Of a stretch of 64,000 bases of DNA, positions 24,052-24,372 are shown in pieces. Origin of the DNA: a virus. Its lineage: Duplodnaviria; Heunggongvirae; Uroviricota; Caudoviricetes. The notes under the pieces are model-generated. The model had not been told where the DNA came from. It worked only from the letters and a program-made list of their open reading frames with translations, and made no database searches. Within the stretch, counting starts at the first letter, position 1. Each line of letters begins with the position of its first letter. Made by a program: the position numbers and the translations under genes. The stretch lies in IMG/VR virus record IMGVR_UViG_2541047857_000014. The stretch is one strand, 5' to 3'.

Positions 24052-24148
24052 CTTTCTACCTCATCACGAAAAAATATTTTTTCCTAAAAAGACTTAAGTT
24101 AGCTTAATCTATTGATAAAAAAAAGCTAAGTAACGACCAAATACGCGC

Positions 24149-24167
24149 GCTCGTATCCCCGCCACGC
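24149..24167 (-). other. putative cos (cohesive end) site
   Basis: minus-strand GGCGTGGCGGGGATACGAG resembles the 19-nt P2/186 cohesive end GGCG(A/T)GGCGGGGAAAGCA(C/T) as recalled; orientation relative to Q matches P2. Confidence 0.4.
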
Positions 24168-24212
24168 CTGCCCGCTTTATGTAGTGGTTTTCATGCACCT
24201 GCATGATCTACG

Positions 24213-24236
24213 CAAAAGCCCGCCAGTTCTGGCGGG
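24213..24236 (-). terminator. rho-independent terminator downstream of DinI-like gene
   Basis: gcccgccag-ttc-tggcgggc with T-run on minus strand. Confidence 0.55.
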
Positions 24237-24372
24237 CCTTAGCAAAAACGATCCTCAAACGATCATGCGATCTCATGCGGCATAGACATGCACTACAGAG
24301 CTAACGCCTCGCAAGGGCTCGTTGTTCAACCTTGCTGACGCCAGAAGCAAGTTCAGACGCCAGCAACGTTTC

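Follow-up and report, generated by a model that had tools for sequence, protein, structure and literature searches.

The window analysed here, one strand of 64,000 nucleotides from IMG/VR record IMGVR_UViG_2541047857_000014, contains a P2-like prophage. Positions 22600 to 24400 are 100% identical to the chromosome of Escherichia coli S88 and to three other complete genomes. One side of the prophage carries the integrase, CI, a regulator in the Cox position, CII, Fil, a gene in the B position, a Dam methylase, A, a LexA-controlled operon and the site described below; the other side carries a cargo gene, Q, P, O, N, M, L and the lysis and tail genes, with ogr/D-side ORFs at the very start of the window. 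The portal gene, the homologue of P2 Q, lies on the plus strand at 21557-22594 (Pfam Phage_portal; RefSeq 'phage portal protein'). Beside it, also on the plus strand, is the gene for the large terminase subunit (19794-21560), an ATPase/nuclease homologous to P2 gpP that matches Pfam Terminase_5, Terminase_6N and Terminase_6C and is the enzyme expected to nick cos. The small terminase subunit, the gpM homologue, is encoded on the minus strand at 17089-17739 (converted from the S88 RefSeq 'phage terminase small subunit', 26662-27312 of L015) and is bordered by an ORF from 17743 onward. These three genes have the order and orientation of their P2 counterparts. Past the integrase (31082-32101), the S88 annotation places in ~32106-44400 a gene for a 407-aa hypothetical protein followed by PD-(D/E)XK nuclease, GIY-YIG and DUF262 genes, together with a frameshifted second DinI-like gene and the tail and baseplate genes of another phage remnant, Mu-like or unrelated to P2. 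This region looks like a second degraded prophage or a defence island abutting the P2-like prophage.

Between the operon and the cargo gene, a gap of 321 bp separates two minus-strand genes, a 469-aa ORF (22642-24051) and a DinI-family ORF. The 469-aa protein matches the PD-T7-1 anti-phage defence profile over its full length (PADLOC PDLC04073, E 1.3e-196, residues 7-457 aligned to positions 2-449 of a 452-position profile) and, more weakly, PD-T7-5. A Pfam search of the same protein finds no domain, and RefSeq labels the product a hypothetical protein. The DinI-like gene (24373-24606, minus strand; 24373-24678 in the ORF list) encodes 77 amino acids in RefSeq, matches Pfam DinI at E 1.3e-22 and is present in the S88 record. 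It is preceded on the same strand by a 62-aa ORF (24617-24805) of unassigned function, RefSeq WP_001154434, which matches phrog_698 at E 1.5e-37 and opens the LexA-controlled operon. The control element is a perfect LexA box, CTGTTTATATTTACAG (CTGT-N8-ACAG), on the plus strand at 24849-24864. It lies some 40 bp upstream of the start of the 62-aa ORF and overlaps a promoter-like TTTACA...TATATA. The annotated LexA site of 186 p95 is analogous to this box.

The earlier note on this DNA had placed a Tum module at the right end of the packaged genome, and this claim holds in part. A LexA-boxed operon with a DinI-like gene is indeed the last before the predicted right end, while the single Tum protein of 186 has no equivalent here. 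186 Tum is one protein of ~146 aa with an N-terminal part and a DinI-like C-terminal part, whereas the window has two distinct genes. Over 75 aa, the DinI-like product aligns to Tum with 41% identity, in the C-terminal half only (residues 71-145), and no similarity to Tum was detected for the 62-aa ORF. The LexA box, the half-length match and the dissimilarity of the 62-aa ORF together support an SOS-controlled DinI/Tum-like operon but not a single Tum of the 186 type. The idea that the 62-aa ORF supplies the missing N-terminal half of Tum thus finds no support in sequence similarity; the protein might be an antirepressor partner in this lineage.

Within the gap, on the minus strand at 24150-24168 and thus inside the segment 24100-24372 that the earlier note had singled out, lies the 19-mer GGCGTGGCGGGGATACGAG. 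It has no second occurrence in the window, and 100 dinucleotide-preserving shuffles yielded no match to it at ≤2 mismatches. The match to the cohesive end of P2 and 186, noted earlier for the first 13 nt, is borne out by the GenBank records, with 13 of 13 positions identical in 186 and 12 of 13 in P2; the divergence after position 13 is equally real, bases 14-19 differing from those of both phages. Aligned over its whole length, the motif is identical at 14 of 19 positions to bases 1-19 of P2 (NC_001895, 'cosL; left cohesive end', GGCGAGGCGGGGAAAGCAC) and at 15 of 19 to bases 1-19 of 186 (NC_001317, 'cos; cohesive end', GGCGTGGCGGGGAAAGCAT). Its orientation relative to Q is that of P2, in which cosL occupies 1-19 and Q the bottom strand at 187-1221: read from the motif along the minus strand, Q of the window is antisense. 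A better cos match elsewhere between Q and A, which would have pointed away from this gap, was also sought. The Q-A interval (22594-24959) holds no second site for GGCGWGGCGGGGA at ≤2 mismatches and therefore offers no competitor. The seven further matches to GGCGWGGCGGGGA in the window each carry 2 mismatches and fall outside this interval, the nearest at 27427-27439 just upstream of the start of A.

The resemblance extends far past 13 nucleotides. When the right and left ends of P2, P4, 186 and SEN8 are joined and compared with the minus strand of the window, the circularised end junctions of P2, P4 and 186 align with it in register and without gaps. With the cuts written as ^, the junction consensus is ...TGCAT(T/G)AAAACC-N7-(A/G)AAG(C/T)GGGC(A/G)^GGCG(A/T)GGCGGGGA-N6^(C/T)GCGCG..., and the conserved flanks around the first 13 nucleotides read ...AAAACC...AAGYGGGCR^GGCGWGGCGGGGA...^YGCGCG. 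The 55-bp cos core of P2 and P4, from −29 to +26, is attributed to Ziermann and Calendar (1990) in passages of PMC3931495 and PMC5694545; it was taken as cited there and recomputed from the P2 and P4 records, which have 52 of these 55 positions in common. Counted from the minus-strand nick, its equivalent in the window is 24143-24197 on the minus strand and consists of TGCATGAAAACCACTACATAAAGCGGGCA, the 19-mer and CGCGCGT. Ungapped identity over this core is 41/55 to P2, 42/55 to P4 and 43/55 to 186; for scale, P2 and 186 share 48/55. The last core base, +26, is T in the window and C in P2, P4, 186, SEN8, Fels-2 and Cartapus.

The bases that depart from P2 and 186 are shared with a group of closer relatives. 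Bases 1-19 of Salmonella phage SEN8 (NC_047753), annotated 'putative cos site', are identical to the 19-mer, and the SEN8 genome announcement gives ggcgtggcggggatacgag as cos, identified during annotation (PMC5427200). The identical 19-mer is also present in Fels-2, and in Escherichia phage Cartapus it lies within a feature described as 'putative cos site, homologous to the cos of P2 phage'. The deduced cos of Smp131, GGCGTGGCGGGGAGACGAG (PMC3931495), is identical at 18 of 19 positions and the GGCGAGGCGGGGGAACGAG of SEN4 and SEN5 at 16 of 19, and all of these end in ...ACGAG. The records of SEN8 and Erwinia phage EtG also have their last base exactly one before the first G of the motif. The record of phage Midge was considered as further evidence on ends and set aside as uninformative, since it merely opens inside a 186-type 19-mer. 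A literature search for mapped ends of this 19-mer variant found only the annotation-based SEN8 call; cos is labelled putative in Cartapus, and the calls across the clade, SEN8 included, rest on homology.

An exact-pattern scan of IMG/VR (L018-L137) places these ends among a small set of alternatives. The matches listed, which are not an unbiased sample, comprise at least 119 usable sites: at least 61 end in ATACGAG, at least 31 in ATAGCAT and at least 19 in the 186-type AAAGCAT, with AGAGCAT (at least 6) and ATACGAT (at least 2) as rarer variants. The divergent 3' part ATACGAG is a variant typical of the Fels-2/SEN8/Cartapus lineage and not decay. In the contigs listed with GCGGGCA^GGCGTGGCGGGGA, the ends vary only at bases 14-19 and the next 7 bases are almost always YGCGCGC.

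Two comparisons delimit the conserved unit. Among the matches listed, at least 61 distinct IMG/VR contigs with the 19-mer show column conservation of 0.8-1.0 from −125 to +25 and of ~0.3-0.5 outside; positions −7 to +19 were fixed by contig selection in this alignment, and the other columns were free. In pairwise comparison, homology to vB_EcoM-813R9, Fels-2, SEN8 and Cartapus stops at 24144 in all four, on the left margin of the core, the Fels-2 block running from 24291 to 24144. Contig conservation and pairwise limits together therefore define a unit of ~150 bp on the minus strand (24143-24293, −125 to +25), with variable DNA on both sides. This cos block is lopsided: ~125 bp lie on the DinI side, that of the right end, and only 6 bp extend past the cohesive end on the side of the left end. 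We infer that it is a functional packaging signal, and its comparative boundaries lead us to predict that it would suffice for packaging.

The long arm of the block is organised around a short repeat. GCATG occurs five times in the 151 bp, against 0.23 copies expected (Poisson P = 4e-6), and forms the densest cluster of this motif in the window. Three copies make up a distal cluster at −123, −110 and −100 (24264-24291, minus strand), whose columns are conserved in the 4-way alignment. A proximal pair, CATGCAGGTGCATG (24192-24205, minus strand), combines an inverted GCATG at −36 with a direct copy at −28, where the 55-bp core has its outer boundary. The GCAT offsets from the cut in the window, −123, −110, −100 and −28, have counterparts in the TGCAT offsets of P2, 186 and P4 (−123/−124, −111, −101 and −29), where the intervening DNA is not conserved. 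SEN8 has TGCAT at −124, −111 and −29, and the copy at −29 is found in all five phages compared. The small terminase of the P2 family may recognise its DNA through the repeats at −123, −110, −100, −36 and −28. By analogy with cosB these repeats would serve as terminase recognition elements, and a right arm of GCAT repeats at fixed offsets is probably a defining feature of the P2-family cos.

Also within the cos block is a GC-rich hairpin with a T run behind it, GCCCGCCAG-AA-CTGGCGGGC-TTTTG (inverted repeat I2; 24214-24237, minus strand), which is likely the terminator of the DinI operon. Its columns are conserved in the at least 61 contigs among the matches listed, and in 186 and P4 comparable positions are taken by other GC-rich dyads. 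A consensus terminator scan did not list this hairpin, an Rfam search of 23900-25000 gave no structured RNA at E ≤ 1, and a tRNA search of the window found none. Farther toward the DinI-like gene, a 32-nt stretch at 24300-24331 (GGTTGAACAACGAGCCC..GCGAGGCGTTAGC) is 94% identical to 186 ~30383-30413, downstream of orf97, in otherwise unrelated surroundings. Adjoining it at 24328-24370, just past the DinI stop codon, is a 19-nt imperfect inverted repeat with no Rfam match.

On the other side of the cohesive end, the block gives way to cargo. The segment from 24143 down to ~22510-22575 is not common to the relatives compared. The start of the 469-aa gene is 98 bp from the predicted left end, which would make it the first gene of the packaged genome, in line with the earlier placement of this gene at the extreme left. 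P2-like phages have a cargo and defence hotspot beside cos, in the region from gpA to gpQ (PMC9122126), and the slot from cosL to the Q homologue is noted in a passage of PMC5694545 that cites Dodd and Egan (1996). The termination of cargo-side homology at +25 in every relative compared fits the published speculation that cohesive ends made by terminase seed hotspot-forming recombination. The full arrangement of cos plus cargo is present in 25 of 5,426 genomes, and the conserved part in 1,277. Elsewhere in the prophage, a gene of the abortive-infection-related AIPR family occupies ~12076-13776, by conversion from S88 annotation coordinates. It is antisense and flanked by the tail-completion and baseplate genes, at the position of the second P2 cargo slot (Z/fun). 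Both hotspots of the prophage thus appear to be occupied by defence cargo.

The replication gene of this copy is damaged. Gene A (24959-27399, minus strand; Pfam Phage_GPA) is frameshifted into ORFs of 695 and 118 aa, the second of which matches the C-terminal part of gpA families. The cause is a perfect 26-nt tandem duplication, two copies of CCCTTGGACTCGTGGCAATAACTGTC at 25330-25381. The repeated unit is homologous to the region surrounding the nick sites annotated for ori in P2 (29892) and 186 (28576), so that the present copy carries two adjacent ori-like sites. The duplication could be the footprint of aberrant rolling-circle initiation or termination. By an annotation check, the sibling prophages of BEN5202, PSS-08-2 and FLI21, which have the same cos and cargo, carry a single 26-nt copy and an intact A of 2415 bp; the FLI21 prophage is frameshifted elsewhere, in the portal and scaffold genes. 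Because the siblings retain an intact A, the lesion is strain-specific and recent, and the cos sequence belongs to an active lineage.

These observations are best explained if 24143-24293 is the cos of a Fels-2-type (Felsduovirus-like) prophage of the P2 family on an E. coli S88-type chromosome, a reading in which we have high confidence. In the P2 family, monomeric circles are the substrate for packaging. By homology with P2 and 186, the terminase formed by the gpM-like and gpP-like proteins would act on the circular genome after excision and replication. It would recognise the ~125 bp on the DinI side through the GCAT(G) copies and the conserved AAAACC...AAGCGGGCA box, and would then introduce two nicks 19 nt apart, predicted by homology between 24169 and 24168 on the minus strand and between 24149 and 24150 on the plus strand. 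The product would be a linear genome with 5'-protruding, GC-rich cohesive ends of 19 nt, in which the predicted cohesive-end sequence at 24150-24168 is the equivalent of cosN. The left end would carry 5'-GGCGTGGCGGGGATACGAG and lead into the PD-T7-1 defence gene and then Q and P. The right end would carry 5'-CTCGTATCCCCGCCACGCC, preceded by the operon of the 62-aa ORF and the DinI-like gene, with the terminator hairpin last.

Three other explanations of the site have to be weighed against this one. The least credible, for which practically no room is left, is that the motif is a chance or relic match and that the real packaging site lies elsewhere in the prophage or is of the pac/headful type. 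Nothing was found to favour it beyond the fact that the match initially rested on 13 nucleotides, and it is contradicted by the shuffles, by the lack of another candidate between Q and A, by a match that spans 55 bp within an architecture of 150 bp, and by a position and orientation identical to those in P2, 186, SEN8 and Cartapus. Somewhat less remote, yet still improbable, is that the site is a cos at which the terminase of the Fels-2 lineage nicks elsewhere, so that the overhang differs in length or offset and the ends lie a few bases away. Since six of the last 7 cohesive-end bases differ in pattern, the identity of the nick positions with those of P2 and 186 is an assumption, and the differing bases 14-19, together with a literature search that returned no end mapping for the lineage, speak for this explanation. 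Against it, GGGCR^GGCG and ^YGCGCG are kept in register across P2, P4, 186, SEN8, Fels-2 and the window, and the large terminase is a clear homologue of gpP.

More weight is due to the possibility that the site is a true cos homologue but a fossil, part of a replication-defective element that undergoes no cleavage and yields no virion genome in this strain. In P2, gpA is essential and acts in cis. With gene A split by the 26-nt duplication and called 'frameshifted' by RefSeq in S88, this individual prophage may be unable to replicate, package its DNA or make virions, and because of the frameshift its cos may never be cut. We take this to be a serious possibility, though not the probable state of affairs. 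The cos block is as well conserved as in phages isolated as virions (57 of 57 positions minus one in Cartapus, 25 of 25 at the left end of SEN8), the S88 annotation shows every other late gene inspected as intact, and the lesion is confined to this strain while its siblings keep A. Such a loss, moreover, concerns present activity and not the identity of the site, and it does not conflict with the assignment of 24143-24293 as a Fels-2-type cos.

As a cos, the site is already known in kind and in sequence, the same 19 bases having been published for SEN8, and the understanding of P2-family packaging is unchanged. What the present analysis adds are the limits of the packaging signal (−125 to +25), the constant offsets of its GCAT repeats and the position of the cargo junction (+25/+26). 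The main value is for annotation: the site fixes the ends of the packaged genome and the gene order for this E. coli prophage family. It also shows that the PD-T7-1 gene occupies the cargo hotspot known to adjoin cos, on the side toward Q. The candidate minimal packaging signal of 150 bp could serve in cosmid-like or transducing constructs with Fels-2-type helpers. A bolder proposal, which we consider rather unlikely and put forward only tentatively, is that the comparative boundaries jointly carry mechanistic information, namely the end of homology at +25, the phased GCAT repeats and an ATACGAG compatibility group. If this were true, the ATACGAG variant would define a group of compatible cohesive ends and terminases that limits cargo exchange among satellites and co-infecting phages.

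With the cos of P2, 186 and P4 the site has in common the register, the first 13 nucleotides (12 of 13 for P2 and P4), the orientation to Q and the terminase gene families. The order A, LexA-controlled operon, cos and cargo, followed by antisense Q and P on the minus strand of the window, is the same in P2, 186, SEN8 and Cartapus. The sites part at bases 14-19, which are TACGAG in the window, AAGCAC in P2 and P4 and AAGCAT in 186, and because of this difference the cohesive ends of the window would not anneal with those of P2 or 186. The accessory genes are also placed differently: in P2 no gene separates cos from Q, and old and tin lie on the A side of cos, whereas the PD-T7-1 gene stands on the Q side.

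The likeness is closest to the cos of SEN8, Fels-2 and Cartapus (Felsduovirus and Elveevirus of the Peduoviridae), in which the 19-mer is identical and the flanks from −32 to +25 are identical or differ at one position. There too, cos lies between a DinI-like gene and one or more cargo genes upstream of the portal gene Q, and it is the cargo that varies: SEN8 encodes a hypothetical protein and an HNH endonuclease there, Cartapus a DUF4145 protein, Fels-2 a hypothetical protein of 565 aa, and the window PD-T7-1. In Fels-2 and SEN8 the cos block is separated from the DinI-like gene by an extra gene that the window lacks. The cos of lambda (cosN, cosB and cosQ) follows a similar logic, with a nicking site that generates 5' cohesive ends and a terminase recognition region of multiple repeats on one flank. 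It has no sequence similarity to the present site, its overhang is 12 nt rather than 19, and its recognition arm is on the left, whereas here the arm is at the conventional right end.
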